A stretch of DNA of 64,000 nt from an uncultured virus (IMG/VR IMGVR_UViG_3300011906_000001) (Duplodnaviria > Heunggongvirae > Uroviricota > Caudoviricetes), in the IMG/VR virus record IMGVR_UViG_3300011906_000001, positions 1-64,000 of that record, one strand, 5' to 3'. This document shows positions 4,356 to 31,241 of the stretch, in pieces. A program made the translations under genes and the position numbers. The notes under the pieces are model-generated. The model was not told the origin of the DNA and searched no databases. It saw nothing but the letters and a program-made list of their open reading frames with translations. How positions within the stretch are numbered: the first letter of the stretch is position 1; each line of letters starts with the position of its first letter.

Positions 4356-4402
4356 CCCCAGGGCATTGGCTCTGGGGTATTGATTTCTTTTTTTCTTTTT
4401 TT
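4356..4402 (+). terminator. intrinsic terminator
   Basis: CCCCAGGGC-ATTG-GCTCTGGGG followed by a long T-rich tract. Confidence 0.6.
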
Positions 4403-4415
4403 AATTGAGGCAAGC

Positions 4416-4901: not shown

Positions 4902-4909
4902 TGTGCGTC

Positions 4910-5335: not shown

Positions 5336-5371
5336 TTCCAATTAATTTGACGTCTATATAGCTATCATGAA
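5331..5371 (+). promoter_or_regulatory. early promoter, TTGATTCCAA class
   Basis: TTGATTCCAA(5332)...CTATAT(5354)-N8-TGAA; overlaps the stop codon of the upstream gene. Confidence 0.7.
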
Positions 5372-5374
5372 TAG

Positions 5375-5408
5375 AAGCCCTTCTCGTCATTGAGAAGGGC
5401 TTTATACC
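5375..5408 (+). terminator. hairpin (terminator or 5' stem-loop)
   Basis: AAGCCCTTCTC-GTCATT-GAGAAGGGCTT-TATACC. Confidence 0.55.
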
Positions 5409-5432
5409 GCCATAAACAAAAGGAATGTGTCC

Positions 5433-6098: not shown

Positions 6099-6255
6099 AA
6101 TCAATATATTGCTTCTGGTTGTAGGGATTACATTGGGTGCTTGCTTTACCACCCTGGCGATGATGGACCCACCCACCCGCAATCAAGACGAACGCGTCAT
6201 CTTAGGCCACCGTGTAGGCCCTGATGGTAATGTTCATTTGGTCTATGCTGACTGA
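6088..6255 (+). CDS. small membrane protein (55 aa)
   Basis: MTAKINILLLVVGITLGACFTTLAMM...; AAGGA SD; overlaps upstream stop. Confidence 0.55.
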   Translation: MTAKINILLLVVGITLGACFTTLAMMDPPTRNQDERVILGHRVGPDGNVHLVYAD

Positions 6256-6302
6256 CATAACGCCCTCCCCATGATGGGGAGGGTTTATACCCTTTATTTT
6301 TT
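6254..6302. terminator. hairpin terminator (CATAA family)
   Basis: GACATAACG-CCCTCCCCA-TGA-TGGGGAGGG-TTTATACC then T run. Confidence 0.75.
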
Positions 6303-6397
6303 GTATAACGTTTGAATGCAATCGTTATTCTATAGCCTTCCGGTTAAAAGGAGGTTAACCCTTCATGATCTATCAATTTTAAATAAGGTTTTAGTCC

Positions 6398-7531: not shown

Positions 7532-7568
7532 CATAATGCCCCTCCCTTAATTGGGAGGGGCTTATGCC
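7530..7568. terminator. bidirectional hairpin between convergent genes
   Basis: GACATAAT-GCCCCTCCC-TTAATT-GGGAGGGGC-TTATGCC. Confidence 0.8.
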
Positions 7569-7582
7569 GGTTCTTTATTTAA

Positions 7583-9118: not shown

Positions 9119-9263
9119 TAAAGCAATCCTTTTTAACGATAAGGATGGATTAAAAATTGACGTGTATGATGAACCCGATCAGTATAATTTACAATGCCTT
9201 TAACCTAATCTGTATGAATTCCATTGTTTTCTACTAAGGTTTACGCCACAAGAGATATTTATC

Positions 9264-9800
9264 ATGCCAGCTTTATTGGTTATCCCAGAGGACACCTTTG
9301 TTGTGATGCGTGAAGCCTCTCTTAATCTAGCAGGGCTTTGTGACATCAACTATATGTCAAAACATTTATCAGCCAGTGATTTGGCGGATATCCATATAGC
9401 CCTTCACGAATTTCCATTTGTATTCTCAAGTGAGCTTGGCTTTGAAAAGGCTAAATCACCCCTGGATCAACTGGCTCAAATCATGAATGAGGAGTCGAAA
9501 GATTCCATTAAGCTTCAAGATTTGTATAATCGTGTGAATGGACGTATTGATAGTTACATGCTTAATAAGTCCTTAAATGCGGACAATAGTGTGTATCAAT
9601 ACTCTTTGCAGGTTATTAACGAGAATCTTTGGGTTGCTGTGCAGCAGAGGCTGCGCGATAAGCCGAGCGATCCTAGCAGACTCTTGCTCCGAGCCAACGC
9701 ATCTTTTTTTGATGATATGATGGCTCAAGCACTGCACTCGATTCCTTTTAATCGGGTGTGTTCTACCAATTTATTCACTTATTATTTAGGCTCACTATAG
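9264..9800 (+). CDS. virion head protein (phiKZ gp119-like by position)
   Basis: 178 aa ORF between the helicase and the major capsid gene. Confidence 0.6.
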   Translation: MPALLVIPEDTFVVMREASLNLAGLCDINYMSKHLSASDLADIHIALHEFPFVFSSELGFEKAKSPLDQLAQIMNEESKDSIKLQDLYNRVNGRIDSYMLNKSLNADNSVYQYSLQVINENLWVAVQQRLRDKPSDPSRLLLRANASFFDDMMAQALHSIPFNRVCSTNLFTYYLGSL

Positions 9801-14019: not shown

Positions 14020-15684
14020 ATGGATGATGAGCTTTTAAAACGCATTAAAAGAGAACTCCCCCCTTTTAATGAGTCCATAGCCAATGGGCTTGCCGTTGAG
14101 CACATGATGACCGTTAACCCAGAGACGGGGGTTAACAACACATTGGCGCATATTGACCGATTGATTAAAGCCAGCTCTGCTTTGTTTCCTAAGGAGCTGA
14201 GCTATGAAGGCAGTCGGGTCTGTACACCAACGCGTCATTTTGAAGAGATCACCCGCGAGTATGGTTCCAAGCGGATTGCTAACATCGCCAAGCATGACGT
14301 CTATCTCGCTGAGCTTCAGTTTAGCTATAACGAAGTCGATGAGATGGGTCGGAAGATTACAACGCCACTCTATCCACGCTTTGTGTTATTGCCCTATGTG
14401 CGTAAAGGTGGATTGATCCACCTTAATGGCGCGCTTTACAACATCTCGCCTGTGGTGCGTGATGTGGGGTATTCTGTGACGAAGGGCAGTGTCTTCATTC
14501 CCTTTAACAGAGCCAAGCTTACCTTCAATAAAACCGATCATCATTTCTGGCGAAATGGAGTTCGTGATATTGGGCTCGTGATTTGGAGTCAGATCCATAA
14601 CGAGATGAGCAACCGCACCAAATGGGATTTGGATAATCGCAAACGCATCGAAAGCAGCGTGGCGCATTATTTCTTCTGTCAATATGGCGTACTCAAAACA
14701 TTCAAGGATTGGGCCAAGGCTGATATCCAAATTGGTTATCGGAAGGATTTCACTGAAAAGCTGTTCCCTAAAAGCGAATATGTGATCTATGAATCCTGTA
14801 GCCTGAAAGGGATTCATCCAGCCGGTGATATTTGCTTGGTGCTTCCGATCGATCAGGAAACTGAGTTCGTTAAGAAGTTGGTGGCAGGGTTCTTCTATGT
14901 CATGGACACCTTTGCCAGTCGGTTTACCCGTGTTGAGTATATTGACGATCCAGCCTTGTGGCAGGTGATCCTAGGTCACATGGTCTGCGGTGACTTTGAG
15001 CATCAAGGTAAAGTCATGGAAAACATGGAAACACATTTCCATGGGTTTAACAATTCCCTCGATGACATGACCATCGAAGACCTTGCAGCGGTAGGTGTAA
15101 GTGTCTCTAACATCTGGGAATTGCTGTATGAAATCATGACCAGTCTGTCTCATCATTTCTATCAGACCGATATTGAAGAAACCTCGATGTATAACAAGCG
15201 CCTGACTGTGCTTCGTTATGTCCTCGATGAACTGAACCAAGCCATCAGTATGTTTGCCTATGGGTTCAGTTCAAGGCGCGATAAAGATTGGACGGTTGAG
15301 GAGTTAAACGAGGTGCTAAAGCGCACCTTTAAACTCAATACCGCCACTCGCAAATTAACAGGGGAACATGGAGAGCTTGAAACTGTTAACTTTGCAGGCG
15401 ACAATATGATGTTCCGATTGACCTCCATGATGGTGCCTCAAGACCGGGCTAAGACCAATAAGGCTCACAGTAAGAGTTTGATTGGCGATAGCAGCCGTTT
15501 GATTCATGCCTCCATTGCAGAGGTGGGGCAATATCGGAATCATCCGAAGAACAATCCAGATGGCAGAGCCAGGGCAAATCCTTGGATGAGGCTCAGCCAT
15601 GATGGAACCATTCTTAGACGGGACGATGTCAAAGAGCTGATTGATGCGACTCAAAAGCGCTTTATCAGAAGACCTGGTCGTTAA
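14020..15684 (+). CDS. rpoB: non-virion RNA polymerase beta subunit, N-terminal part (phiKZ gp123-like)
   Basis: LLPYVRKGGLIHLNG, YNKRL, IHASIAEVG...PKNNP-G resemble beta conserved regions; position three genes after the capsid gene. Confidence 0.85.
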   Translation: MDDELLKRIKRELPPFNESIANGLAVEHMMTVNPETGVNNTLAHIDRLIKASSALFPKELSYEGSRVCTPTRHFEEITREYGSKRIANIAKHDVYLAELQFSYNEVDEMGRKITTPLYPRFVLLPYVRKGGLIHLNGALYNISPVVRDVGYSVTKGSVFIPFNRAKLTFNKTDHHFWRNGVRDIGLVIWSQIHNEMSNRTKWDLDNRKRIESSVAHYFFCQYGVLKTFKDWAKADIQIGYRKDFTEKLFPKSEYVIYESCSLKGIHPAGDICLVLPIDQETEFVKKLVAGFFYVMDTFASRFTRVEYIDDPALWQVILGHMVCGDFEHQGKVMENMETHFHGFNNSLDDMTIEDLAAVGVSVSNIWELLYEIMTSLSHHFYQTDIEETSMYNKRLTVLRYVLDELNQAISMFAYGFSSRRDKDWTVEELNEVLKRTFKLNTATRKLTGEHGELETVNFAGDNMMFRLTSMMVPQDRAKTNKAHSKSLIGDSSRLIHASIAEVGQYRNHPKNNPDGRARANPWMRLSHDGTILRRDDVKELIDATQKRFIRRPGR

Positions 15685-15723
15685 TCTGCGAAACTGAAAC
15701 ACTTAAACCCAAGAGGTTGTATC

Positions 15724-17760
15724 ATGTACCATAATCAACAACTGCCTGTTAGCACGACTCAAGTAGATGGCAGTACCTTTAACCACTCGTTGCCTCAAGG
15801 TAATGACGTATGGCCTCCCATCCAACTGCCGCAAGGGATTGATGTTCAAATTGTCAATGCCGTGGTGTCCAACTTCAGGATGTTTGCGCAGAGTCGCCAT
15901 AACAAAAGCCCCTTGCATTGCTTTGTGTATAACCTGCTGTCGAGCAACCGTTTCAATAATCAACTGATTATTGAGTGGTGTCAGCGGGCGGTAGACTTCT
16001 GTGAATTTCTGATGGTGGTTCAACGCAACACCCCTCAGGATGCCATTACCAAAGCGGCTGGGAAGATCTACATGTCGCTTCTGGCAGTGACTGCCAGTCA
16101 GTATCCGCAGGTGGCTCAACAGCTTCCTCAGGACATGATTAATCAGCTCACCCAAGTTGGGGCTGAGTTTAACGATATCCAACGTGATATTCATGGCTTT
16201 AAGAGTACCCGTGCCATGCCGCAGGGTAATATGGGTTATGCTCAAGGCCAGGTTCAAGGCAATGGGATGCTTCCACCCATTAACCCAAACCAGCAGTATC
16301 ATAACCAGCCTATGCAAGGGGGCGTTCAGCAGATTCTGAATACCTATGCACCTACCGCATCGGCCCATGTTCAAAACCAACAACATCCAACGGGTCAAAC
16401 CCAAACAGGTAGGAGTTCTGGTATGCTGCTTGATGTCGCCTCCACGCCCATCCAATCTCAAAGCTGGGATGCAAGCGCTGCAACTCAATCTCACCCCCAA
16501 TCGACTGCTCAAGTCCATCAACCCATCAATGAGACCAATCTACCGGTTCCTCAGAATGTGGACGAATTGGTAATCGATCCACGTTATTATACGCCTAAAG
16601 GGTTTGTGATTGACACCAGTAGGCCTTTTGATTGGATTCATAATCCAGGTGGGATTGAAATCCGCCCTGCTCATCATGCAAGTTGGACTCGTACCGAAGG
16701 GGATGATCAACCTTATCGGACAGCGTATGATGCTGAGCAATTCATTCGGTTTATGGCCAAATGGCCTGATGGTAATGTTAAGGAGGTCTTTGTGGCAGTC
16801 AAGCCTGAGATGGAATATCTCTTGCATGAGATTCGTGATGAGCTTCGCATGAAGGCCATTCAGCCTAAAGGGGTTGTGGTGGCTAACATGACCGGTATCA
16901 TCGATGCCGATAAAGATGCCAAGCCAATTGCCGTCGTCCGAAATGAAAAGGACGAGCATCTGGACGATGAATTTGAAATGAGTCCGGTGGTGCTCGATAC
17001 CTGTCTGTACAGCGGCTCTGAACTCGACGATGAAAAAGAAGCCAAGCTTATTGTGCGTAAGATGCTGGATATTGCTGACACCGATCCAGTGCCTGCTCAT
17101 GAGTATCGCTCTTATCGGCTGCATCCTTTGGATGTTGATGAGTTGTGCCAAGAAGCGTTGATGAATCTTAAGGAATATAAGAGCTTTGAAGCCGCAGCGG
17201 TTAAGCTTCAAAGTCTTCTGGATGAGAACTATCTGCCGATTCGTTATTTCAGATTCCTGGATAAGCGTCTAACAGGGGCTGTTAATCAGTACCTCAAAGA
17301 CAGCATGGGTGTGAAGGCCATTGCGATTGAAAGCTTTGTGACCGACATTAAGGACTTGGGTCCTTATCTGGCGAATAAGAAAGGCACTTCGTATCAAAAG
17401 ATCCTCGATGGTTCAGTCGCCACCATCTTGAACAAAGCGTTGACCTTCGGCACCAATGACGAAGAAGACGATCAAGGTGAATCGGTGTCTGTCTTTGGCG
17501 TTCTGGATCAGTTCATTAACTTCCAGGTCGGTTGGACTGAACAGGACCTTGAGAACCTTGAGATTTCCGATGAGGCCATCCTGTTGTCAGGCTATACTCA
17601 TCCTAAGGTGCTCAATGTCGTCAAAGGCATGATCAGTCGGGCTAATGCCGATGGTTATCTGCAATCGTCCAAGCTTCGCATTATTTCAGCCGATGGGATT
17701 TACTACGAAATCATTCGGGGTAAACTCATTGAAAATGCGGTATTGCTGAAAAAGCTGTAA
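15724..17760 (+). CDS. conserved hypothetical protein with Q/N/P-rich linker
   Basis: 678 aa, GAGG SD, co-transcribed with the nvRNAP subunit. Confidence 0.75.
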   Translation: MYHNQQLPVSTTQVDGSTFNHSLPQGNDVWPPIQLPQGIDVQIVNAVVSNFRMFAQSRHNKSPLHCFVYNLLSSNRFNNQLIIEWCQRAVDFCEFLMVVQRNTPQDAITKAAGKIYMSLLAVTASQYPQVAQQLPQDMINQLTQVGAEFNDIQRDIHGFKSTRAMPQGNMGYAQGQVQGNGMLPPINPNQQYHNQPMQGGVQQILNTYAPTASAHVQNQQHPTGQTQTGRSSGMLLDVASTPIQSQSWDASAATQSHPQSTAQVHQPINETNLPVPQNVDELVIDPRYYTPKGFVIDTSRPFDWIHNPGGIEIRPAHHASWTRTEGDDQPYRTAYDAEQFIRFMAKWPDGNVKEVFVAVKPEMEYLLHEIRDELRMKAIQPKGVVVANMTGIIDADKDAKPIAVVRNEKDEHLDDEFEMSPVVLDTCLYSGSELDDEKEAKLIVRKMLDIADTDPVPAHEYRSYRLHPLDVDELCQEALMNLKEYKSFEAAAVKLQSLLDENYLPIRYFRFLDKRLTGAVNQYLKDSMGVKAIAIESFVTDIKDLGPYLANKKGTSYQKILDGSVATILNKALTFGTNDEEDDQGESVSVFGVLDQFINFQVGWTEQDLENLEISDEAILLSGYTHPKVLNVVKGMISRANADGYLQSSKLRIISADGIYYEIIRGKLIENAVLLKKL

Positions 17761-19537: not shown

Positions 19538-21685
19538 TCAAGTTAACGGGTCATACTGCATCAGCATGCCGTCTGTAGTGGGGTCTTGTTGTGTGGTGAA
19601 GGAAATCCCACGAATGCCTACATCCAAGGCATTGAGCCTATAATGCGCAAAGGCATTGTACTGCTCCTTAAGCGCAACGGTCGGATCAATAGCTAGGTGA
19701 CTGGCAGTCGCCATCGAGAGCGCCGTCTGGGGGGTGGTCTTATCGGCATTAACCGTTAAGGTTTCAAACCCCTTTCCTTTGTAGTTAATGGCATCAAAGG
19801 ACACAATGTTAGCGCGGTCCATGCTCTGCGTCTGAACATGAATATCCCCCGCTCGAATAGCAGGCACCCCCATCTGCCTGTAATCGGTTGACGAGAGGTT
19901 TCTCAAATACTGAAGTGGATAGGATGAAAGCGTTCCCATCAACTGAAGCAATTGAGCTTGGATTTCCCCAAGGGTGATCACCGTCACCAAGTTCGCCCCG
20001 GTGGCGGTATTAACCACTTCAACTAACAGTGAATCCATTTCACTGTCGCTTAAACCCACCACGTTAATCCCAAGTTCATCAAAATACTGTTCAAAACTTA
20101 AGGGTTCATCCACCAGCTTCACTTGAATGTTCATGAAATGGCGTTTAACCAATTGCTCACAATACACCCGCGTCATGTAATGCTCTTGGAAGGAGTACAG
20201 CTCCCACAGCTTTAAGTATTCCTGATGAAGAACTGAAGCATCGGTATAGAACTTCTCCGTTGAGATGTATTCCGTCATCGGGGTGATGCGGTCCATGATG
20301 GCTTGGATCATGCCATCAGGTACATACTTAGGATCAACAATAGAGGCTAGCTCGTTAAAGCTCGGCAACGGGCTTCTAAGCACTTCATAGGCCACTAGGG
20401 TGGGTATCCTATCGGTTTCAAGCCCACGCGTCTTCCCGTAGGCATACAGGCTCAGGATGAGGGCATCTTTAACCGTCAGAGACAGGTAATCGCCTGTAGC
20501 GGGATTAACAACATTGATATACGCCCGATAACGGTTAGTAGCCGCCAAATGAATCCACTGGTTAAACAGAACCTGCTCTAAGGTTTTGATGTTACTGTTA
20601 CCCCGATCCACCACTTCTGAATCAAGCACTTTCGTCGGCAGGGTTGAGAACTGATCGGATTTAACTTTATCGACCAGCGTCTGTTCAGTGTCATACTGCA
20701 CGCTGGGGTTATCCCGCGCCAGGGTATACTCACGGGTTAGGAGTTGATCGACCGTGATTTTATCATACCCAGGTTGTACAATACTGCTGTTGATATCGTG
20801 CTTAACCAATTCCACTTCAGGGTAGAGTTCCTCAGGCATCTTCTCAAGGTTCTGCTCTAAGGTGTAACCCATCAATGGGATACCGCGTTTAGTTAACAGG
20901 CGATTAACCAAGCGTTCCCAGATATACTGTTTACCAACATTGCGTTTAATGAACTCAATGTTACGATACAGATAAAGCTGTTGTTCCTTATTAAGGTAAG
21001 GAATATAGGCATCGAGCCGGTTATGACTGGCCAGGTATTGCCTAATGTGGAAACTGTGCACCTTATTGGTTTTACAGTTTCGAAGCCTGATGATTTCAAT
21101 GGCATTGGGGATATTCAAATACAGCAGGCCAATGAAGGTTGGAAGATAAAGATCATCAAGCAGCAAGAACTGTTCGTTAAACCAACGAATGTTAAAACTC
21201 TTGACCCAGTCTTCTAAATCTTCCTTGAAAGTGTCTTCATTGGACTCAACATACTGCGCATCAAAATACAGAATATCTCCATCTTGTGCATCTATTGCCG
21301 TTTGCAGTGGCACAGGCGAAATAATACCATTGATCAAATCCGCTTGCGTGGGGTAGCGAGATACCAGGTTGTTGTAATAGACACTACCGGGTTTGTACTC
21401 ACGCGCTGTGGCTCGATGAAGCCTTAAGTTCTCTTTGGTAAAATCGATAATCTCACGGGTGTCCATGGACCGCACCGTCATTAAGGTGTCGCTCTTATGG
21501 TACTGCCCGTTTAAGTTTAAATAATATTTCCACGTGGTGGGGTCTTCGTCGAAGACTTGGTAGTTGATGGCTTTTAAACTTGCGTTGATGGCCTCAGCTA
21601 CATAGTTGTTCTTGATGACCAATGAGCGTGTTAAGGCCAAGACCTCATCACGGTAAATTTCATAATACGCCTGCGTTTGACTCAT
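19538..21685 (-). CDS. virion structural protein, putative baseplate wedge (phiKZ gp128-like)
   Basis: 715 aa; TWKYYLNLNGQYH and LYLYRNIEFIKRNVGKQ motifs; divergent from the portal gene. Confidence 0.7.
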   Translation of the reverse strand: MSQTQAYYEIYRDEVLALTRSLVIKNNYVAEAINASLKAINYQVFDEDPTTWKYYLNLNGQYHKSDTLMTVRSMDTREIIDFTKENLRLHRATAREYKPGSVYYNNLVSRYPTQADLINGIISPVPLQTAIDAQDGDILYFDAQYVESNEDTFKEDLEDWVKSFNIRWFNEQFLLLDDLYLPTFIGLLYLNIPNAIEIIRLRNCKTNKVHSFHIRQYLASHNRLDAYIPYLNKEQQLYLYRNIEFIKRNVGKQYIWERLVNRLLTKRGIPLMGYTLEQNLEKMPEELYPEVELVKHDINSSIVQPGYDKITVDQLLTREYTLARDNPSVQYDTEQTLVDKVKSDQFSTLPTKVLDSEVVDRGNSNIKTLEQVLFNQWIHLAATNRYRAYINVVNPATGDYLSLTVKDALILSLYAYGKTRGLETDRIPTLVAYEVLRSPLPSFNELASIVDPKYVPDGMIQAIMDRITPMTEYISTEKFYTDASVLHQEYLKLWELYSFQEHYMTRVYCEQLVKRHFMNIQVKLVDEPLSFEQYFDELGINVVGLSDSEMDSLLVEVVNTATGANLVTVITLGEIQAQLLQLMGTLSSYPLQYLRNLSSTDYRQMGVPAIRAGDIHVQTQSMDRANIVSFDAINYKGKGFETLTVNADKTTPQTALSMATASHLAIDPTVALKEQYNAFAHYRLNALDVGIRGISFTTQQDPTTDGMLMQYDPLT

Positions 21686-21732
21686 GGCACTACACTCATC
21701 TTAAGATTAAAAAGACTGTTAAGAGGTTGATA

Positions 21733-24384
21733 ATGGATAACACCCCTTTTCCAAAGCTTGCAGCGGTTCGCAATGCGCCACCTTCAACGCAAGCCTTGCT
21801 GAGAAAACTGGTTCATGATCCGTTAAGCGCGGTGCGTTCTTCTGGGCAAACTAAATCGATTAACTTAAATCGATTCACCCTGGAGAAGATCTCTAACCAA
21901 ACCGCACAGGATACCATTGATTCTGATTCGATCATGCAGGTATTGCCTGATCTTGAATTGGTTGAGCAAATCCTGGTCGGATCGATCCTATCGCCTAAGG
22001 ACATGTCAAGTGCTGATATCAATATCAGCGTGGCTGAAAATCAATTTAACGGAGCCATAGCAGGGCTTCTGTTGGAAGTCCCGACCCGTCATTTTAAGCA
22101 TGACTATAAAATTGACGAACGCCTGGATATTCAACTTGAGAATATCCTCACCAAACATGGTTCACACATTCTGGTGGTCTTGCCTGAGAACAATGTGGAT
22201 GCGATCATCAATGGTCGACCTCAAGTGTCCATGGAAGATTACAAGCAAGCCTATACTAGAATGCAATCAGGTAAAGCATTAGGCTTTCTAGGTCATCCCA
22301 GTTCCGATCAAGTCTCGCTTGAAAACTTTGATGGCAGCTTAGAGGACATCAGTAAGGTGCGTGATAAGGGAGGTAAAACCATTTCCCATATCACGGTCAC
22401 GGATAACTTTAACGTCCTTAAAACCCCTGACATCAAAAAGCGGATGCGCTCGCTTCAGATCAGCAAGCGAATCAGCCAACTGGACGTATCGATGGAGGAC
22501 GGTTCTTTTAACCTGACCTCTGAACAGATCGATGCCCTGTATCAAAACCGAGGAATGAGCTCTAAAGCGGTTGAGGTGGTGGCTCCTCAGGCGTATATGG
22601 ATAAACCCTCTGTAGGCCATCCACTGACCCTTGAGATGCCAGCAGAAGCGGTAGTCCCCGTCTTTGTTCCGGGTAAGCCTGATGAACATGTGGGTTATTT
22701 CATCTTGTTGGACATTTTTGGCCGCCCTGTGAGCAAGAATTCACAGCGTGACTATTACAACGAGATGCGATCATCCTTTAAGGCCAATCAGAAAGATAAC
22801 TCCTCTGAACTGCTTAGGCTCACTCGTGAAGCCATGGGGACAACTGATAACACCAGCGTTTATGAAGTTGAGCAGATTCAACAGACCTATGCCACCATTC
22901 TGGAAAACGATATCCAGAACCGGTTGCGCAATGGTCTTTACGATGAAGAGTTTGAGATTGGCTTCTCTGAAGAAGTCTCTCGCTTGATGCTGTACCGTAA
23001 GTTCAAGCAACAAAACACTCAACTGTTGTATATCCCGGTTGAATTGGTCAGCTACATTGCTTTTAACTACAATGCTGATGGTATTGGTCAAACGTTATTG
23101 GCTAAATCCAAGATCCTGTCTAACATGCGTTCGGTGTTGCTCTTTGCTGAAATCATGGGAGGGGTGCGTAATGCCGTGGGTCGTAAGAAGGTGAACGTCA
23201 CCCTCGACCCTGATGACCCTGATAAAACCGATACCGTGGCTAAGGTTCAGGAACTGATCATGGAAACCTCCAGGCTTGGGTTTCCGATTGGTGCCCCTGA
23301 TCCGGCTCAATCGCTGGACTACCTGACTCGTGCAGGGTATGACTTTGCGATCAATGCTGACAGTGAAGATTACGGACAGACCAAGGTTGAATATGATGAT
23401 TACACCACCAATATTCAAGCGGGCAATCCTGACCTTCAAGATCGGCTAAGGCGCATGCAAGTATCGGGCCTTGGGGTTCCGCCTGAGAAGGTTGACCCAA
23501 CCGCATCTCCTGACTTTGCCGTAGGGGTCGTACAGAATGACCTAATCATGACACGACGCGTGAAGCGTTATCAGAAGATCTTCTGTCACGGACAAACCAA
23601 GTTTGTCAGAACTTACACGCGTAACTCCTCAAAGCTTATTGATGAGATGGTCAAGTTGATTGAAGGCAATAAGGACCTGCTTACCGATGAGCAGAAAACC
23701 CAAGAGCCTGGGGAGATCGTAAGACAATTCATTGATGCCTTAACCGTCAAGCTTCCTGAACCAGATACCACCCGGATTGATTTGATGAATCAGGCTTTCG
23801 ATCAATATAACGATCTGCTTGAGAAGGCATTGGACGCCTACATCACCCCTGACCTGTTCCCGGATGAATCCTTTGAAGGGGCTTCTTCTGCGGCAGATCG
23901 GTTTAAGAATATCATCTCCGCCTTCTTCCGTCGTCAATACATGGCTCAGAATAACGTACTACCTGAGCTTAACGTGTTACATGAGATGAATGGAGAGAAA
24001 CCAGCCTTCAGTATTCTGGATGTTCAGAATGGGTATATGGCAGCGATGGGAACGGCTTTCCATGAGTTCCTTAAAACGGAAACTGAGAAGCGGGATGAAT
24101 GGAAGGAGAAATACCCCCCGGCTGAAGAACCTGGTTTTGGTGGAGAGGAGACACCGTTTGGAGATGGTGAGCTAGAAGATGGTTCTACATCCGAGGAGGA
24201 TACCGGTGAATTGAGTCTGGATGATGACTTTGCACCACCGCCTGATCTGGACGAACCTGTAAGTGAGGAAGAAGAACCTTCTACGGATGAAACGCCTGAA
24301 GGAGAGACAGAGGAGGAAGAGGAAATCCCTACTGAAGAAGAGTCTGCACCACCCGCTCCTGATGAGGACGAAGAACCTAAGTAA
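21733..24384 (+). CDS. portal protein (phiKZ gp129-like)
   Basis: About 883 aa from ATG 21733 (GAGG SD); VSME/VSLE sites in N-terminal region; GYFILLD, GIGQTLL, GLGVPPE motifs; acidic tail; synteny. Confidence 0.8.
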   Translation: MDNTPFPKLAAVRNAPPSTQALLRKLVHDPLSAVRSSGQTKSINLNRFTLEKISNQTAQDTIDSDSIMQVLPDLELVEQILVGSILSPKDMSSADINISVAENQFNGAIAGLLLEVPTRHFKHDYKIDERLDIQLENILTKHGSHILVVLPENNVDAIINGRPQVSMEDYKQAYTRMQSGKALGFLGHPSSDQVSLENFDGSLEDISKVRDKGGKTISHITVTDNFNVLKTPDIKKRMRSLQISKRISQLDVSMEDGSFNLTSEQIDALYQNRGMSSKAVEVVAPQAYMDKPSVGHPLTLEMPAEAVVPVFVPGKPDEHVGYFILLDIFGRPVSKNSQRDYYNEMRSSFKANQKDNSSELLRLTREAMGTTDNTSVYEVEQIQQTYATILENDIQNRLRNGLYDEEFEIGFSEEVSRLMLYRKFKQQNTQLLYIPVELVSYIAFNYNADGIGQTLLAKSKILSNMRSVLLFAEIMGGVRNAVGRKKVNVTLDPDDPDKTDTVAKVQELIMETSRLGFPIGAPDPAQSLDYLTRAGYDFAINADSEDYGQTKVEYDDYTTNIQAGNPDLQDRLRRMQVSGLGVPPEKVDPTASPDFAVGVVQNDLIMTRRVKRYQKIFCHGQTKFVRTYTRNSSKLIDEMVKLIEGNKDLLTDEQKTQEPGEIVRQFIDALTVKLPEPDTTRIDLMNQAFDQYNDLLEKALDAYITPDLFPDESFEGASSAADRFKNIISAFFRRQYMAQNNVLPELNVLHEMNGEKPAFSILDVQNGYMAAMGTAFHEFLKTETEKRDEWKEKYPPAEEPGFGGEETPFGDGELEDGSTSEEDTGELSLDDDFAPPPDLDEPVSEEEEPSTDETPEGETEEEEEIPTEEESAPPAPDEDEEPK

Positions 24385-24390
24385 CTAAGG

Positions 24391-24429
24391 GACATAATCC
24401 CTCCCCTTGATTGGGGAGGGATTTATGCC
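24391..24429. terminator. bidirectional hairpin between convergent genes
   Basis: GACATAA-TCCCTCCCC-TTGATT-GGGGAGGGA-TTTATGCC. Confidence 0.8.
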
Positions 24430-24442
24430 GTTCTAGGTCAGC

Positions 24443-25135
24443 TTAAGCAACCGGAACGAGGCCTTCGTCGAGGACCCAGTCCCCAGTTTCAGCTTCAAAC
24501 CGAATACCCAATTGATCTGCCATAAAACTTTCCAATCCTTGGGGGGTTACTGGCTTATCATTGACGGTGGTCTGAGGCGCCATGTCGCGCTCAGGATCAG
24601 CCATTTCAAGCTTCTGCCATGTACCGTCGCCTTTACGCAGGAAACGCGCGTCAGCGTCATCAGAAGGAGCCTGATTGACCTTCTGTTCCCAAATCTCGGT
24701 CATCTGTGCCGACATGCTACCGTAGGCATAGGTGTACCGAAGTTTCTGACCTTCGAAATTCAGATTGCCAATGTCAAGCACATCGACTGTGACGACAGGA
24801 ATGGCATCCCCTAGGGAGAGGCCTGTTTCTGAATCGATGATCAATGCAGACCAAACCTTCTGGTCTTTAACCGGATGATCCGCTTTTACCTGACCGCCAT
24901 TGATCACTTTCTCTTCAGTGGCAAATTTCAGATCAGGCTTTCGGTCGCTCCAAATAGGAACCCATCGTTTACCGAGGGCTTCCCACTGGTATTGAACCAC
25001 TCCACCGCCAAACTCAGGATCGCCGGTGGCATCGTTAACAGTGACTTCCATCCCAGGAAAACGTTTAGCAATTGCATTGCGCTCACTAATCGTGTTAACG
25101 ACCCGGCTACCATCGTTAGCAATAAGAATACTCAT
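24443..25135 (-). CDS. fibre/decoration protein with C-terminal WVLDEG motif
   Basis: N-terminal VNTISERNAI domain related to 25205 product; ends GDWVLDEGLVPVA. Confidence 0.65.
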   Translation of the reverse strand: MSILIANDGSRVVNTISERNAIAKRFPGMEVTVNDATGDPEFGGGVVQYQWEALGKRWVPIWSDRKPDLKFATEEKVINGGQVKADHPVKDQKVWSALIIDSETGLSLGDAIPVVTVDVLDIGNLNFEGQKLRYTYAYGSMSAQMTEIWEQKVNQAPSDDADARFLRKGDGTWQKLEMADPERDMAPQTTVNDKPVTPQGLESFMADQLGIRFEAETGDWVLDEGLVPVA

Positions 25136-25156
25136 AATTCGTACTCCTCTTTTAAC

Positions 25157-25194
25157 GACATAAACAGCGCGGCGCTATGACCGCGCTGTTTATA
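25157..25194 (-). terminator. hairpin terminator
   Basis: GACATAAACAGCGCGG-CGCTATGA-CCGCGCTGTTTAT. Confidence 0.7.
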
Positions 25195-25204
25195 ACCGTG
25201 TTAC

Positions 25205-26194
25205 TTAGCCGGCAACGCGCAGGTACTGAACCTGTACGGTGTTACCATCCCACTGATTAGCGGAGTCAGTGGAGACAGTGAAGACACGCGGATCAGCAGT
25301 GGCAACAACAGGTGCGTCGTAAGCAACGCCGTCTTCGCTGATGAAGCGAACAGTGGCGAAGTTCATAACGCCTGCAACGCCTGCTTTCGGCGCGCTGGCC
25401 AGGGTGATGGTACCGTCGGTGACCACAACGCTTTCCAGAGTCGGAACAGCACCACCTTCGATCGCAGCACGATCAGCGTAGGCTTTAACAGCAGCAGCCG
25501 AAGGAGCATTGGCTTCAGGAGCAGCAGCAGCCAGATCCTGTTCCAGCGACGCTTTGAAGACAGCGTCATCCAGATCAACAGGTGCGGTAACCGACAGGTT
25601 AGCCACTTTGGCCTGAGCTTCGTCGGTGAAGCTGTTGGTGTCTTCGTTGGATTCGTAGCTGGCCTTGATACCGGCAGCGCTGATGCTGTTTTCCAGAGCA
25701 TCTTGGTCGGAGAGCTTGACCCATTCGGTGACAACACCGTCTTCACCGACAACAGCCGGCTTGTACATCGCCCAGCGAGTGTCGCCATCGTCACGTACGA
25801 AGACGCGATCGTTTTCATCCAGACCAGTCAGTGCATCACGTTCGGTCAGGTCAGCAACAGTGAAGTTGGAACCCAGGGCCAGACGCGCAGCATCGATCTG
25901 CTCACTGACTTCACCAGCGGTCAGAACGTCGAGGACTGCACGAGCAGCATCCAGATCGGTCAGATCCGACAGGTTGGAGGCTTTTTGCAGGGCAGTGCTG
26001 GCAGAGTCAGTGACGTTGCCGGCCAGTTCGTTGATTGCAACAACCAGGTTTTCTTTGTTGGTCGTGACCAATGCAGCCAGATCACCGTCAGAGGCGATGC
26101 GGGCTTCTTGTTCGGTCTGAACCGACTGTCGGATGCTGGTCAGGTCATCAACAAGACCGGCGATGGAACTTTTGTGACGCTTCAAAATAGCCAT
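25205..26194 (-). CDS. abundant fibre/decoration protein
   Basis: TTNKENLVVAINEL and KASNLSDLTDLDAARAVL fibre-type segments; capsid-like codon bias. Confidence 0.7.
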   Translation of the reverse strand: MAILKRHKSSIAGLVDDLTSIRQSVQTEQEARIASDGDLAALVTTNKENLVVAINELAGNVTDSASTALQKASNLSDLTDLDAARAVLDVLTAGEVSEQIDAARLALGSNFTVADLTERDALTGLDENDRVFVRDDGDTRWAMYKPAVVGEDGVVTEWVKLSDQDALENSISAAGIKASYESNEDTNSFTDEAQAKVANLSVTAPVDLDDAVFKASLEQDLAAAAPEANAPSAAAVKAYADRAAIEGGAVPTLESVVVTDGTITLASAPKAGVAGVMNFATVRFISEDGVAYDAPVVATADPRVFTVSTDSANQWDGNTVQVQYLRVAG

Positions 26195-26304
26195 AGTAAA
26201 CTCCGAAGATTAACTGATTAAAACCGCTATGGATTAATATTCCATTGGGAAAAAGGAAAGTATCGCGTCCACATACCATAGCGAACTTTTACTGAATAGC
26301 CTAT

Positions 26305-26712
26305 TTAGATTAAATCACCTAAATAGGAAACGCGAATGCTTGAAATATCATCTTTCAATACTTCAAGATCGTCCTTAGGAATCAACGCATAAGGTTTCTC
26401 ATTAATGACGACAACCTTAACGCCAATCACCTCAAGAAAGCTTCCGTCCTTTAAGTAGACGTGCGCCATATCCATAAACAAACTCCCATAGGGTATGGAT
26501 GGCAGAAGGGCTAAACCTTCGTGATCTACAGTCAAAAGATCGGTGGTCTTTAAACCCACGCCCAAATCTTTGAATGACTTCTTAAGAAGCATTTCAGGAT
26601 GAAATCGTCGATGGGTCCAGGGTACTCCATCTCCTGGCCTATGGATGACTTCAATCCATAGCTCCCCTGATAAATCTTCTAAGGGAGCAAAGTCTGATAT
26701 TCGGTTATTCAT
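26305..26712 (-). CDS. fibre adaptor-like protein
   Basis: N-terminal RISDFAPL; C-terminal beta domain resembling that of the 25205 product. Confidence 0.55.
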   Translation of the reverse strand: MNNRISDFAPLEDLSGELWIEVIHRPGDGVPWTHRRFHPEMLLKKSFKDLGVGLKTTDLLTVDHEGLALLPSIPYGSLFMDMAHVYLKDGSFLEVIGVKVVVINEKPYALIPKDDLEVLKDDISSIRVSYLGDLI

Positions 26713-26901
26713 GATGAGGTCGCCACCTGGTCACCTGTTACCTGGACACCTAATAGGCGTGGGTTTAAAAAGATTCATAACAATGAGGGAAGACACCCCC
26801 CTTTCTTCCATCACTGACGCTTATGAAATATCAGGTGTGTACCCTACATCATTAACCCACTGACTCAACCTTTAAGTTTTAAGAGTTTAAAAGAATTTAA
26901 A

Positions 26902-27435
26902 TCAAAACGATTCTAAGAATCGGAAGTCTCCATTCTCCACCAATCGAGCACCCCCATTTTCCAACATGCGAGCCCCATCAGGAAAGCTTAAAGACACGAC
27001 TTGAATTGAAAGACCTCCATACCACACATAGCTTTCTGGCAACGCTTTCATGCGGTAGGTAAACGAATAGCCTTTAGGTGCCAACAGGACATCGTCCATA
27101 ATGACATCCGTTGCGTTCAGATAAAGGCCAGCGACTAGATTTAACGCCTCAACAATTCGCTTAGGCGAGATCAATCCCTCTAAACTGATAGTGGTGTGAT
27201 CACGCAATACAATGCCAAGGTTCAAACGGCGATACACATACCACTCTTTCTGACGTGTGATGGTATCGACCATCTCCACAAAGGTTCGACCAGGCTCCTC
27301 GGGAGTCGGGTCGCTGTACATATCGCCAAATTCAAGATGCTGAGCATTAATCTTGCGTTCAGGGTATGAACGTTTGATCAGTTCAATTAAAGCATCTCTT
27401 GAAGGAAGATTATAGGCGATTCCTATGCGTTCCAT
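26902..27435 (-). CDS. virion structural protein, paralog of 30194..30727
   Basis: FGDMYSDPTPEEPGRTFVEM...WYVYRRL; C-terminal MLENG/LVENG repeats. Confidence 0.75.
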   Translation of the reverse strand: MERIGIAYNLPSRDALIELIKRSYPERKINAQHLEFGDMYSDPTPEEPGRTFVEMVDTITRQKEWYVYRRLNLGIVLRDHTTISLEGLISPKRIVEALNLVAGLYLNATDVIMDDVLLAPKGYSFTYRMKALPESYVWYGGLSIQVVSLSFPDGARMLENGGARLVENGDFRFLESF

Positions 27436-27484
27436 AATACAGGTTCCTTTTCAGTAAAAGGACTTTAAAGCAGGGAAGTGTGAA

Positions 27485-27498
27485 TACATAGAATAACC
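27485..27498 (-). promoter_or_regulatory. putative late promoter GGTTATTCTATGTA
   Basis: Identical 14-mer at 30776-30789, both about 50 nt upstream of paralogous genes; contains the phiKZ late TATG core. Confidence 0.55.
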
Positions 27499-27509
27499 CC
27501 CCGTGCCTT

Positions 27510-27543
27510 CATAAGACCCCTCCCGTTATGGGAGGGGCTTATA
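27510..27543 (-). terminator. hairpin terminator (CATAA family)
   Basis: CATAAGA-CCCCTCCC-GTTAT-GGGAGGGG-CTTATA. Confidence 0.75.
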
Positions 27544-27547
27544 ACCT

Positions 27548-28195
27548 TTAACTGAAGTTAAAGAGCTTGGCAGGAATAGTCGGAAAACCATTCAGGGTCG
27601 TAGCATTCCTGACTAGATCCTTAAGATCCCAGATCACCTTAGCGGTCTCTTCACACTGGACCAACGCCGTCTCAGCAATATCGATCATCTCTTTGGCCGT
27701 TACTTCGAGCGTAACATTCTCGTAAGGCCGGAAGATCATCGGTGTTTCGTCGTTAGCCGCTTCAGCACGGTACGCCCGGTCTTTAACGGTCAACAGATTA
27801 ACGCGATCTTCAGGACGCAGTTGAATATGATAGGTGGTACCTTTGTATTCATAAGGTGCCCCAACTGCAAGCTCAGCTGTCGCCTTCTTGTCAATCTCTT
27901 GGATCAATTGATCGCTTTTTTGTTTGAGTTTCTGCGTCGTTTCAGTCTCGTTGAAACCGCGCGCTTCCCACTGTTGAATCCACTTGCCGTTATGTTCAAC
28001 AGGCGCTTTCTCAGTGACGACATCCCCGGTGGGTTGGTCGGCCTGGAACACCTTAGCATAACCTAACGACAGCAGATCTTTTTCGCTGATGTCAGAACCA
28101 AAACTCACTTGAGGATTGGATTGACGGATGCCCTCTAAGGTCAAGGGATATTGCTTGGTGCTCAGTTCAATCAACCGATCTTGACGGGTAATCAT
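27548..28195 (-). CDS. tail fibre assembly chaperone-like protein (DUF4376-like)
   Basis: YPLT..IRQSNPQVSF, KWIQQW and C-terminal pattern typical of fibre assembly proteins; AAGGAG SD. Confidence 0.65.
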   Translation of the reverse strand: MITRQDRLIELSTKQYPLTLEGIRQSNPQVSFGSDISEKDLLSLGYAKVFQADQPTGDVVTEKAPVEHNGKWIQQWEARGFNETETTQKLKQKSDQLIQEIDKKATAELAVGAPYEYKGTTYHIQLRPEDRVNLLTVKDRAYRAEAANDETPMIFRPYENVTLEVTAKEMIDIAETALVQCEETAKVIWDLKDLVRNATTLNGFPTIPAKLFNFS

Positions 28196-28206
28196 TATCA
28201 TCTCCT

Positions 28207-28653
28207 TTAGTAGCTTGCGCCAATGGAACCAGTCCAACCATTACCTGTCCACAGGAGGGTAATGACGGTTTGAGTAGTACCCAGTGTAGGGACTACACCC
28301 CCGCTCCATTTAACGTTAGCCGGCCAGTTAATGATACCAGTCGAGCCATTGATGATCAGAACCGCTACCATGGAACGGTTAGCCGGAGGCTGATTGTTAA
28401 ACGTCAGCGTCCGGGTGGCCGTCTGAGCGATTTGAAACACTTGAGCAGTTGCAAAATCAAGCACCGTCGTGGTGGTCGACAGCTTCAGGTCATAGCGATC
28501 TTGTGCAAACTGAATGGGTTGTCCACCCAGTGTGGCACCATCCCCTACGCGCAGGGTTTTATCGGATGTGTTAAAAACGAGCTCACCGGCTCCTGGAACT
28601 ACCTTGTTGATTGCAGTTGCAATCCCTCGGCGAATTTTCAAACGAAAGGCCAT
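28207..28653 (-). CDS. fibre tip protein with Mtd_N-like N-terminal domain
   Basis: MAFRLKIRRG...GELVFNTSDKTLRVGDGATLGG; C-terminal INWPANVKWSGGVVP beta domain. Confidence 0.7.
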   Translation of the reverse strand: MAFRLKIRRGIATAINKVVPGAGELVFNTSDKTLRVGDGATLGGQPIQFAQDRYDLKLSTTTTVLDFATAQVFQIAQTATRTLTFNNQPPANRSMVAVLIINGSTGIINWPANVKWSGGVVPTLGTTQTVITLLWTGNGWTGSIGASY

Positions 28654-28721
28654 TATTAAATCCTTGATTGATCGAATGGATGATATTAAGGTAATGATCA
28701 ATTCATAAGATGACAAACCAA

Positions 28722-28757
28722 GGCATAAAGCCTCAGGCCGAAACCTGAGGCTTTATG
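28722..28757 (-). terminator. hairpin terminator (CATAA family)
   Basis: GGCATAAAGCCTCAGG-CCGAAA-CCTGAGGCTTTATG. Confidence 0.8.
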
Positions 28758-28788
28758 GGATCATCACTCAGGTATTAATCACCAGGGG

Positions 28789-29469
28789 TTAGACGCCGCC
28801 CAGTTCACCTTCGTCGAGTACCCAGTCGTCACCGACCTGAGTAAAGCCGAGCATGGCAATGACCTCACCCAGACGAGCAGGAGAAACGGCCTTGTCGGCG
28901 TTTTCCAGCGCTTGCGCTTCTTCGGTGCTGGCCAGGGCCAGGATCTCAGGGCTGGCCAGGTCAACGTAGACAGTACCACCCCAACGGAAGATGGCGCCGG
29001 TGTCGATGGCCACGTAGATCTTACCCGCTTCACCTTCAGCCGGGAAGGCATCACGGGTATCGAATTCCAGAACGTCATCGACATAGGAAGGCAGGACGCT
29101 TTCTTTGATGATGCCGTTTTCGAACAGATCAGCGAGGCTGACTTTGCCTTCGAGGGCTTCAGTCACCGCTTGTTGATCGGCCTTACCGCCGAGGGTTTCT
29201 TGGATGGCGGTCAGGGCATCAGTGTCGACCTTACCAGCCAGTGCTTCAGTCAGGCCGCCGATGCTGTCAACAGTCAGAGCACCCAGACCATCGGTGAGCA
29301 TACCTTCAATCACTTCACGCGACAGACCGGCGGGATGACCACCTGGAGTCACGCCATCGTGAACCGACAGCTCGAACGTGTCAGTGTTAAGAACCAGCTG
29401 ACCGATAGCGCCTACATAGGTGCTAACAGTAGCTTCTGAACCGCGCAGAATTTGAAAACGAAATGCCAT
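28789..29469 (-). CDS. abundant fibre segment protein: Mtd_N-like N-terminus and C-terminal WVLDEG motif
   Basis: MAFRFQILRG...GQLVLNTDTFELSVHDGVTPGG; GL..AL.GK.D repeats; LPSYVDDV...GKIYVAIDTG; capsid-like codon bias. Confidence 0.75.
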   Translation of the reverse strand: MAFRFQILRGSEATVSTYVGAIGQLVLNTDTFELSVHDGVTPGGHPAGLSREVIEGMLTDGLGALTVDSIGGLTEALAGKVDTDALTAIQETLGGKADQQAVTEALEGKVSLADLFENGIIKESVLPSYVDDVLEFDTRDAFPAEGEAGKIYVAIDTGAIFRWGGTVYVDLASPEILALASTEEAQALENADKAVSPARLGEVIAMLGFTQVGDDWVLDEGELGGV

Positions 29470-29573
29470 GTGAATGTCCCCTTAAAGGAAATTGAGAGTA
29501 GGAGGTTTAAACAATACAAGAGCACAATTACAATCGTTTAAAAGCCTTCCTATAAGATACTTAAGTTTTTGGA

Positions 29574-30164
29574 TTAAACAGACGTTTGGATAACGCCTTC
29601 ATCCAATACAATAACGCCGTCAGCATCGACCACAAAGCCCATACGATTCAAGGCATCGTTGATATGATCACCCACGGCTTCAACATCGAGCTTCAAACCC
29701 AAGGCTTTGGCCACAGCGTCGGAAATAGGCTTTTCAAGGTCAGAGGTATTATCAACCCGACCCAACCCCAATAGCCGTTTGTCCAACCCTTCCCACGCAG
29801 CCCCGCCAGAACGGGCAATTAAAACCATGCCATCTACAGATTCATTGACGGTATAAAGGGCTTGAAGGGCTCTGACCCACGCTTGTTCGGTGCCTTTAAA
29901 TTGCCCCTGATCCACGGCGATCTGATACGCCGATCGTCCTTCTAGCGATTTGAGCCAGGAGTATTGATCCCCATCATAGCCCAACTCAACCGCCAAGTCA
30001 TACGCTGACTTGCCTGTAACGGCCATGTATTCCCTAAGCGTTTCAATATTAAGCTTAAAGTCTTGATTAAGGCCATTACTGGCTTGCGTGATAATTGCAA
30101 ACCATACATCAGGGGTAATGTTTGATAGAGCACTTCTTGAACTGACTTTACCAGATACCGACAT
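29574..30164 (-). CDS. fibre segment protein
   Basis: Two G(K/R)SAY..AV..G repeats; GLGRVDNTSDLEKPIS; ends IVLDEGVIQTSV; AAGGAG SD. Confidence 0.7.
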   Translation of the reverse strand: MSVSGKVSSRSALSNITPDVWFAIITQASNGLNQDFKLNIETLREYMAVTGKSAYDLAVELGYDGDQYSWLKSLEGRSAYQIAVDQGQFKGTEQAWVRALQALYTVNESVDGMVLIARSGGAAWEGLDKRLLGLGRVDNTSDLEKPISDAVAKALGLKLDVEAVGDHINDALNRMGFVVDADGVIVLDEGVIQTSV

Positions 30165-30193
30165 AACAACTCTCCTTACTTCAACTTAAAATG

Positions 30194-30727
30194 TTAAGCC
30201 GATTCAAGCAGCACATAAAACCCATCTTCTTGCTGCATAAAACTACCATCCTCATTAAGGACATTGGCATCAACAAGTGCAGTCGGAGAGATGTTAATCA
30301 CCTTCGTGCCATAATACACATAACTCTCAGGATCAATGACTAAGGTGTAGGTTTGATTGGCTGTTTGAATGGGTGTTTTCTTAGTTGAGACACTTGTATC
30401 TTTTTCGCTTAAAGCCAAGCCAAAGGTTTGGTTAATGGTTTTGATAATCGATGCAGGGCTGATAGGTGGTTCAACATGAAGAGGTGTGTCATCTTTTATC
30501 ACCTCTTTAATATCAAGCCGTCTGTAGACATACCAATCCTTTTCACCGATTTCAAGATCGGTCATCTCAACAAAAGTACGACCCGGCTCTTGTTCTGTTG
30601 GATCGCTGTATAAATCCCCAAACACTACAAAACGAGGGTTGATCTCACGATGCGGGTAAGTCTTTTTAATCAAGCACACTAAAGCACTTTTAGAATCTAA
30701 TCCAAAAGGAAATTTCTGGTCAGCCAT
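30194..30727 (-). CDS. virion structural protein, paralog of 26902..27435
   Basis: FGDLYSDPTEQEPGRTFVEM...WYVYRRL; C-terminal LNEDG/QQEDG repeats; AAGGAG SD. Confidence 0.75.
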   Translation of the reverse strand: MADQKFPFGLDSKSALVCLIKKTYPHREINPRFVVFGDLYSDPTEQEPGRTFVEMTDLEIGEKDWYVYRRLDIKEVIKDDTPLHVEPPISPASIIKTINQTFGLALSEKDTSVSTKKTPIQTANQTYTLVIDPESYVYYGTKVINISPTALVDANVLNEDGSFMQQEDGFYVLLESA

Positions 30728-30775
30728 ACATACACTCCTTTTTTATAACAGAAAAAGGACAGGCGCAAGCGAAGA

Positions 30776-30789
30776 TACATAGAATAACC
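30776..30789 (-). promoter_or_regulatory. putative late promoter GGTTATTCTATGTA
   Basis: Identical to 27485-27498. Confidence 0.55.
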
Positions 30790-30803: not shown

Positions 30804-30838
30804 GGCATAAAGCCCTTCCTCTTAAGAGGAAGGGCTTT
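30804..30838 (-). terminator. hairpin terminator overlapping the stop of 30822..31241
   Basis: GGCATAAAGCCCTTCCTC-TTAA-GAGGAAGGGCTTT. Confidence 0.75.
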
Positions 30839-31241
30839 GACCGTTTTGACCCAATAACATTTTAATAAGATCAAACACACCGTTGATGATCGTTTCAAGC
30901 AGACCACTGCTGTGTTCAGCTTGTTCAGGATCACCGAGCAACATGGCAAGGGTTAAGGTCATGGCAATCACGGCAATGAATGCAGACATGGCCAATACGG
31001 CGGTTCGATAAGAATCTTTATTCCTAACGCCCCCCAAAGGCTTGTCTAGAATCTGACCCCGAAGCACTGAGTTAGGCAACTGATACATTTGCGTTAATAC
31101 CGCAGCCCCGGTTTGATTTAAGTTCACTGCAATAGCAGGGTCGTTAAGCGAGGCATTGATAACCGCTTTAATGGCTTTAGAGTAAGGACTCTTAACCAGG
31201 GGTTTGTCCCCTACATCAATTAAGGCTTCTTCTAATGTCAT
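30822..31241 (-). CDS. membrane protein, putative holin
   Basis: One clear TM helix plus C-terminal amphipathic helix; coupled to the spanin genes. Confidence 0.5.
   Translation of the reverse strand: MTLEEALIDVGDKPLVKSPYSKAIKAVINASLNDPAIAVNLNQTGAAVLTQMYQLPNSVLRGQILDKPLGGVRNKDSYRTAVLAMSAFIAVIAMTLTLAMLLGDPEQAEHSSGLLETIINGVFDLIKMLLGQNGQSPSS

Follow-up and report, generated by a model that had tools for sequence, protein, structure and literature searches.

A modular fibre locus in two arms, with predicted plug-and-socket joints, in a phiKZ-like jumbo phage

In the long tail fibre of phage T4, gp36 and gp37 are joined physically end to end, and Bbp9-Mtd of phage BPP-1 is the founding case of the Pfam family Mtd_N. 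Among chimalliviruses, the available parts of a recent report describe DUF7941 modules that build head-to-tail filaments on Goslar and name phiKZ gp143 as one of them, the cases of polymerisation or baseplate attachment being limited to Goslar gp22 (reported) and phiKZ gp126-gp127 (modelled) (10.64898/2026.04.21.720040). Here we analysed 64,000 nucleotides (the window), the first 64 kb of the 233,433-base uncultured virus record IMGVR_UViG_3300011906_000001 (estimated completeness 78%), and in it a minus-strand locus at 24443..30789. The neighbouring portal, baseplate, RuvC and spanin-like genes and the gene order match phiKZ-like jumbo phages, and the locus is the gp143-gp146 fibre region of such a phage, in two arms. 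It is a real modular fibre kit with a known kind of joint, and on balance we favour two fibre arms of end-joined segments held by two types of joint. A search of mainly openly accessible literature found no description of the sequence rule behind either joint.

In the model that we propose, two fibre arms, presumably carried by the virion, would be built from short and probably trimeric segments linked end to end. At one joint (joint 2), the C-terminal xxE[DN]G repeats of an anchor protein would be gripped by an N-terminal domain of the base, for which we coined the name KIS in this analysis; at the other (joint 1), which would be of the T4 gp36-gp37 and BPP-1 Bbp9-Mtd kind, a beta-hairpin at the C-terminus that finishes in D-x-G would dock onto Mtd_N of the following segment. 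Arm 1 would run anchor, base, extender, tip, and arm 2 anchor, base, the product of 25205..26194, that of 24443..25135 and then an extender or a tip, the tip being either the cap (28207..28653) or one of the six paralogous Mtd_N receptor-binding proteins encoded at 115-121 kb of the genome. The extender would be far more abundant than the base, most simply through self-addition until a tip ends the chain. What this analysis adds is the second joint, repeating segments that are probably present in high copy, an array of tips and a candidate capsid read-through. Mtd_N, a very common phage domain, gains a predicted ligand, the assembly order of fibres would be readable from gene ends, and the placement of phiKZ gp143, gp145 and gp146 is predicted.

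All eight open reading frames (ORFs) in which an earlier note on this DNA had seen a plug-and-socket fibre kit were recovered on the minus strand, 28207..28653 being an ATG start inside a longer ORF that opens at TTG 28716. Their ends are as that note described: D-x-G lies within the last nine residues of five of the 254 genome ORFs, three of them those it had picked out, and the only two double E[DN]G endings among the 254 belong to the genes it had named. The arm 1 anchor (30194..30727; phrog_2935) is homologous to phiKZ gp143 (35% identity to PHIKZ143 across 97% of length), with a DUF7941 domain and C-terminal xxEDG repeats (plug type 2); DUF7941 was recognized in both anchors of the locus (34.5 and 33.9 bits, Pfam cut-off 27). 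The base (29574..30164) has an N-terminal KIS socket of the gp145 type (phrog_15433, residues 4-101) followed by GKSAY repeats and a C-terminal IVLDEG (plug type 1, 29577..29642). The extender (28789..29469) has, on Pfam and model evidence, an Mtd_N socket (about 29329..29469), a helical stalk, a small beta domain and a C-terminal WVLDEG plug (28792..28851). The cap (28207..28653) joins an Mtd_N socket to a gp146-like C-terminal tip domain (phrog_3904, residues 51-147) and, in agreement with the earlier note, carries no plug.

The Mtd_N starts (PF18454) proposed for extender and cap scored 27.1 and 32.4 bits against a Pfam cut-off of 26.3, and in single-chain models both folds resembled Mtd: the extender domain by Foldseek (E 4e-4, root-mean-square deviation (rmsd) 1.6, 44 columns) and the cap over Mtd residues 5-49 (Z 6.6, rmsd 2.2, 45 aligned). 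The extender model (predicted local distance difference test 76.5, predicted template modelling score 0.37) places a strand at residues 3-5 and a bridge at 222, both missing from the model of the plug-less cap, and neither feature was used as evidence. Searches of the Protein Data Bank with the 29574 and 28207 proteins returned no match, no viral loci close to the extender were found, and Cake matches in the structure-relative search were rejected as repeat artefacts.

The evidence for joint 1 comes first from gene adjacency. The survey that the earlier note had suggested was run on 120 viral loci chosen solely by an Mtd_N DNA pattern, among the matches listed (113 with an Mtd_N match, 40 with short flanks). 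The gene directly upstream of the Mtd_N gene ended in D-x-G in 78 of 108 cases (60/89 after dereplication), as against 24/247 control genes in the same loci (15/220 dereplicated) and 6/64 of the Mtd_N genes themselves, an odds ratio of 28 with a p-value of 1e-27 that is overstated as the loci are non-independent. In a separate set of 79 loci chosen by the extender middle domain, a plug gene was present in four of the five loci with Mtd_N vs. 6/74 of those without, and this set included an unrelated base-extender-cap trio (locus L010). Eight hand-chosen cultured phages were also checked, six of which followed the rule, among them BPP-1, where Bbp9 upstream of Mtd ends in DLGGIA, and Minorna, which has a trio of plug, socket plus plug, and cap; Phosso did not follow it, and AH02 has N in place of D in the plug. 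T4 gp36 ends in DFGYY, and the start of gp37 matches the Mtd_N profile at 92% in hhalign, although HMMER gives only 10 bits. The same signature, of T4/BPP-1 type, recurs in the window at the steps from 29574 to 28789 and from 28789 to 28207.

Relatives of the extender provide a second line of evidence. Base and extender are fused in HPP-Temi, with FEEG immediately preceding Mtd_N, and the terminal plug of the extender is intact in D6 but reads LDP in HPP-Temi and IDSS in PhiPA3. D6 has one free Mtd_N, HPP-Temi one that is fused and PhiPA3 none, so plug decay tracks the loss of a free socket. Taken together, we hold it highly probable from these sequence patterns that the C-terminal D-x-G hairpin binds the Mtd_N domain of the next segment. 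The earlier claim of an LDEG plug for an Mtd_N socket thus stands as regards gene adjacency in unrelated phages, the HPP-Temi fusion and plug decay, while physical binding stays a prediction.

Some findings temper this conclusion. The survey loci are not phylogenetically independent, many being cyanophage-like in look, and among internal Mtd_N copies only 7/44 had D-x-G directly before them (background 7%), so that, with this general fusion test failed, the fusion argument rests on one lineage. Solved sequence relatives of Mtd_N comprise Mtd alone or with host ligand entries, and none lists a fibre partner. Among 10,401 Mtd_N representatives (E <= 0.001), we also observed proteins of 840-2530 aa with three to five internal Mtd_N-like copies and no D-x-G before them (P0121-P0126). 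That the motifs are instead trimer-capping or folding ends, or scars of gene fission, brought together by the clustering of fibre genes, could draw on the likeness of Mtd_N to the trimerisation domains of collagens XV and XVIII (Z 5.8 and 5.7, rmsd about 5, 50-53 aligned) and on the 15 dereplicated control genes that end in D-x-G. We consider this very improbable, given that D-x-G is specific to the upstream neighbour (67% vs. 7%) and uncommon on the Mtd_N genes themselves, that the same pair marks T4 gp36-gp37, a physical joint whose sequences we checked, and that plug decay follows loss of the free socket.

For joint 2, we searched for the xxE(D/N)G repeats and, separately, trained a KIS profile on 59 sequences from 121 KIS loci (among the matches listed), after dropping short, near-duplicate, QueE-like and "IAEG" sequences; it replaced a first KIS regular expression that was too narrow (12/82; 6/20 dereplicated; controls 2/389). 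The LLQEDG repeat was C-terminal in 106 of 118 repeat loci, and the gene after the repeat scored on the KIS profile in 54/103 (12/21 dereplicated) vs. 0/427 controls. On a gp145-N profile from chimalliviruses, the two KIS domains of the window ranked first and second among 254 ORFs (26305..26712, E 1e-10; 29574..30164, E 0.007), and this profile matched the general KIS profile at 96% (0.3% for a control against Mtd_N). We therefore see the pairing of an xxE(D/N)G plug with a K/R-I/V-S domain, as formerly proposed, upheld as a rule of adjacency; that the KIS domain of the base grips the repeats is probable on this sequence evidence, somewhat less so than joint 1. Weighing on the other side, the repeat lay upstream of KIS genes in only 7/118 loci among the matches listed (controls 0/77 and 3/794), so for many KIS domains the partner must be another one or lie farther off. 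On the general profile, the window's two KIS domains scored -1.0 and -2.5 bits, and they are linked to it only through the chimallivirus profile, which includes close homologues of both. In about 20 of the repeat loci (among L338-L455), a very short EDG-ending ORF is followed by a gene starting MG[IV]QLKNN, possibly a second socket family for the same plug.

The repeats also occur away from gp143. When five related phages were scanned with a pattern, four had a second double repeat, and in all four that were read (phiKZ, D6, HPP-Temi and PhiPA3) xxE[DN]G repeats stand in frame directly after a TGA; the frame stays open there for about 25-31 codons and closes ahead of the hairpin (phiKZ, AF399011.1 120512-120589, L469:413-490; the other three, L470, L471 and L472). 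Annotation names the gene as major capsid in phiKZ and D6, and the HPP-Temi and PhiPA3 genes have the same C-terminal sequence. The peptide was matched by 63 records, 47 at >=99%; nearly all of those listed are unannotated, and some weak matches are gp143 tails. This suggests that read-through of the capsid TGA could yield a head anchor tag in these four phages, and the recurrence of the repeats behind the capsid stop argues for a portable tag. Such a tag fits the GenBank label of phiKZ gp145 and gp146, "structural head protein" (gp143 is listed as structural). The window's own capsid gene ends in TAA, and the repeat tag was not found behind it. The passages seen of two phiKZ papers do not mention capsid read-through, for which no dedicated literature search was made.

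Reports on phiKZ bear on the role of gp143 and, as far as the portions available go, count against a fibre function. Disruption by transposon sequencing found gp143 to be tolerant, thus non-essential, and gp145 and gp146 without insertions (10.1101/2025.11.23.690004), gp143 brings holin triggering forward by ~10 min and is modelled with the holin cytoplasmic domain (PMC12894885), and the 2026 paper on the structure of the intact virion leaves gp143, gp145 and gp146 unmentioned in its main text (PMC13250141). From this one could argue that gp143-like proteins are lysis regulators whose xxEDG tails play no part in fibres, which would leave joint 1 as the sole real joint. Yet the modelled holin contact involves the first globular domain rather than the tail (PMC12894885), and the position behind the holin is true of 30194..30727 and untrue of 26902..27435, a second copy away from the holin that precedes the other KIS gene and has its own copy of the upstream motif. 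Moreover, EDG-to-KIS adjacency extends to unrelated phages, GenBank treats gp143 as structural, and a second repeat behind the capsid stop could explain how gp143 can be dispensable while gp145 and gp146 lack insertions. We therefore judge a lysis role alone to be quite improbable, and lysis and fibre roles of gp143 can coexist.

Whether the extender adds to itself is the most finely balanced part of the model. As the earlier note had seen, 28789..29469 has capsid-like codon bias (rank 4/254 by three indices), far above the base (142-191/254), the arm 2 base (246-250/254), the cap, the anchors and the six tips; DUF7941 genes rank 112-227/254 by the codon adaptation index. A one-to-one spacer would need no more expression than its base. 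The 120 best listed of 702 extender homologues included 23 with a clear Mtd_N start by eye, of which 22 end in D-x-G and one stops just short, and D and G are invariant in the 22 aligned (226-349 aa); four more of those listed, in which the Mtd-like start is remote, lack a plug. In D6, the sole Mtd_N found in 307 kb by two profiles, which could miss a remote socket, is on the extender, whose plug is intact and whose gene ranks 3/26 in codon bias in its locus, and in a chimallivirus locus (L458) a 140-aa minimal extender is the most codon-biased of 12 ORFs. That locus (6-9508, 15573-16340) also encodes a 1278-aa plug-ended fibre, two 25205-like genes and a distant Mtd_N-start gene. Extenders are a minority, only 4 of the 126 best N-terminal Mtd_N representatives carrying a plug of their own.

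Several points count against self-extension. Codon bias is a proxy and not a copy number; socket-plus-plug linkers elsewhere are followed by a cap gene in 10/10 surveyed cases; and in 7/9 the linker has the ending DGG and the gene before it D[YLF]G, the x residue being the same in 0/9. Since linkers precede caps and mostly change plug subtype, fixed-length chains are indicated. Both here and in D6, Trp is present in the extender plug and absent from the base plug, and the passages seen of the D6 paper do not mention long fibres. The same joints could accordingly form a chain of set length in which the base plug fits only the extender socket and the extender plug only tip sockets, the extender being a one-copy spacer whose codon bias would stem from something else (a large number of anchor sites, or inheritance from a donor), and further bases could be missing from a genome that is incomplete. 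This rival is possible but rather unlikely in our view: it sits poorly with the intact D6 plug lacking a second Mtd_N partner (bearing in mind that a remote socket could be missed), with a base, cap and six tips that all lie far below the extender in codon bias, with the high bias of the D6 and L458 extenders, and with the VLDEG common to base and extender here. We thus regard self-extension as about an even chance; the homopolymer formerly proposed remains plausible on codon rank, D6 and L458, and is weakened by linkers that stand before caps with a mostly differing subtype.

The proposed terminator between extender and cap is there, as a hairpin with a 15-pair stem (28724..28757) that resembles the one behind the major capsid gene; strong hairpins also follow the putative chaperone gene described below, 25205..26194 and 24443..25135. 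The further claim that this terminator sets fibre length is too narrow, because six Mtd_N tips from another operon and the third plug, on 24443..25135, would compete, and we consider it unlikely. Beyond this, it is tempting to speculate, with rather less than even confidence, on a two-joint code in chimalliviruses in which a KIS-socket base attaches to xxEDG tags, displayed by gp143 on DUF7941 filaments or, in phiKZ and its kin, by a UGA read-through tail of the major capsid protein, and carries a high-copy, self-polymerising fibre of variable length that ends in a random choice of seven tips. If so, a single virion would show mixed receptor binders, and a self-extending fibre with swappable tips would offer a control of reach and receptor range unlike the fixed T4 chain.

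Arm 2 was said to repeat the logic of arm 1, which is true of its two ends; its inner joints have neither D-x-G nor Mtd_N. It begins with the second gp143 homologue (26902..27435; Pfam and PHROG), with xxENG repeats, 40% identical to the first and not adjoining the holin. A hairpin and a 14-base promoter-like motif precede both gp143-like genes and occur nowhere else (30775..30788 and 27484..27497, minus strand; two exact copies in the 233-kb genome), so the arms appear to share a duplicated start, a putative promoter; sigma-70 promoter sites in the sequence were at chance level (8 observed vs. 9.0 expected). The arm 2 base (26305..26712) carries the KIS socket by the gp145-N profile and a C-terminal domain common to PhiPA3 gene 167 and Noxifer 300. 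The high-expression segment (25205..26194) is homologous to PhiPA3 168 (55%) and Noxifer 301, and the end adaptor (24443..25135) has, by sequence comparison, a PhiPA3 169-like N-terminal part and a C-terminal WVLDEG plug (24446..24511) where PhiPA3 169 has a fused tip domain.

In codon bias, 25205..26194 ranks 2-3/254, equal to or above the extender and beside the major capsid gene, and is a candidate second repeating unit. A weak hhalign match (10%, E 0.003) might reflect a C-terminal domain shared with 26305; if that were real, the reasoning used for the extender would also apply to 25205 and have it extend itself. An atlas search with the 25205 protein named no family. Its conserved N-terminal motif is a possible third joint type, and 25205-like genes are also first or nearly first in codon bias in the Noxifer, L458 and L459 loci. 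The arm 2 order is retained in PhiPA3 167-169 and in Vibrio phage Va1, a non-phiKZ myophage where the trio recurs (L456:4210-9399) and the base-like domain forms the last part of a protein whose annotation is tail sheath completion protein, an arrangement that suggests a neck anchor.

Eight Mtd_N matches were found in the genome, and the six outside the window form a tandem array of paralogues without plug (genome 115,194-121,382; 40-54% mutual identity), flanked by a DUF7941 gene and a DUF4376-like gene. One of the six passes the Pfam cut-off, the other five scoring 13.5-22 bits. The C-terminal domain of one paralogue matched a 382-aa chain of the JBD30 baseplate structure 8RK3 (E 7e-36), most likely the receptor-binding protein gp54 to judge from the portion of PMC11445458 available, and the six are candidate alternative tips. 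The cluster (G000 114744-121797; L009:1745-8798) has low codon bias. No reverse transcriptase with template and variable repeats was found among the genes scanned around either cluster; no genome-wide search was made.

Around the arms, the gene after the cap (27548..28201, with a hairpin behind it) encodes a DUF4376 protein by Pfam, an assignment that the earlier note lacked; the chaperone role it had given this gene draws on position and a PHROG tail match, from which a fibre assembly chaperone is probable. The gp142-like gene (30822..31241, minus strand; phrog_14484 and gene order), with spanin-like genes before it, is presumably a homologue of the phiKZ gp142-type holin (described as such in the part seen of PMC12894885). 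The gene order otherwise departs from phiKZ: the fibre cluster directly adjoins the portal gene (19538..24443 and 32670 onward), the gp131-135 block was not found between portal and RuvC in the window, and no endolysin gene lies between gp143 homologue and base (30164..30194), vs. phiKZ, PhiPA3, D6 and HPP-Temi. A lysozyme-looking gene was spotted by eye at genome 112469..113086.

Among described systems, the T4 long tail fibre is alike in its end-to-end trimeric segments, with D-x-G plus two residues at the end of gp36 and an Mtd_N-like start in gp37. It is a fixed chain with a single joint of this type, whereas the present locus has one protein with both halves, three plugs, eight sockets and a second joint type. 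BPP-1 Bbp9-Mtd shares the sequence and fold of Mtd_N and an upstream fibre gene with the DLGGIA ending, but varies its tip by a retroelement, where variety here would come from seven tip genes. With phiKZ gp143-gp145-gp146 (and PhiPA3 162-169, D6 and HPP-Temi), the locus has in common the gene order, a gp143 homologue, gp145-N and the gp146-like tip domain; phiKZ has two long proteins in which Mtd_N was not found, and here the arm is divided into short plug-and-socket parts and duplicated, in a locus without an endolysin gene. The Goslar filament cloud, as described in the available text (10.64898/2026.04.21.720040), is likewise a self-polymerising virion filament of a chimallivirus, and DUF7941 occurs here in three genes besides the two anchors; there it is DUF7941 itself that polymerises, and the candidate unit here is an Mtd_N segment on a DUF7941 protein. 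Finally, the branched spikes of phiKp24, with T4 gp10-like docking, also attach several receptor-binding proteins modularly, but in the part of that study available (PMC9700779) the parent bears the dock domain and the tip supplies an N-terminal part, whereas here a C-terminal peptide would come from the parent and the domain from the tip.

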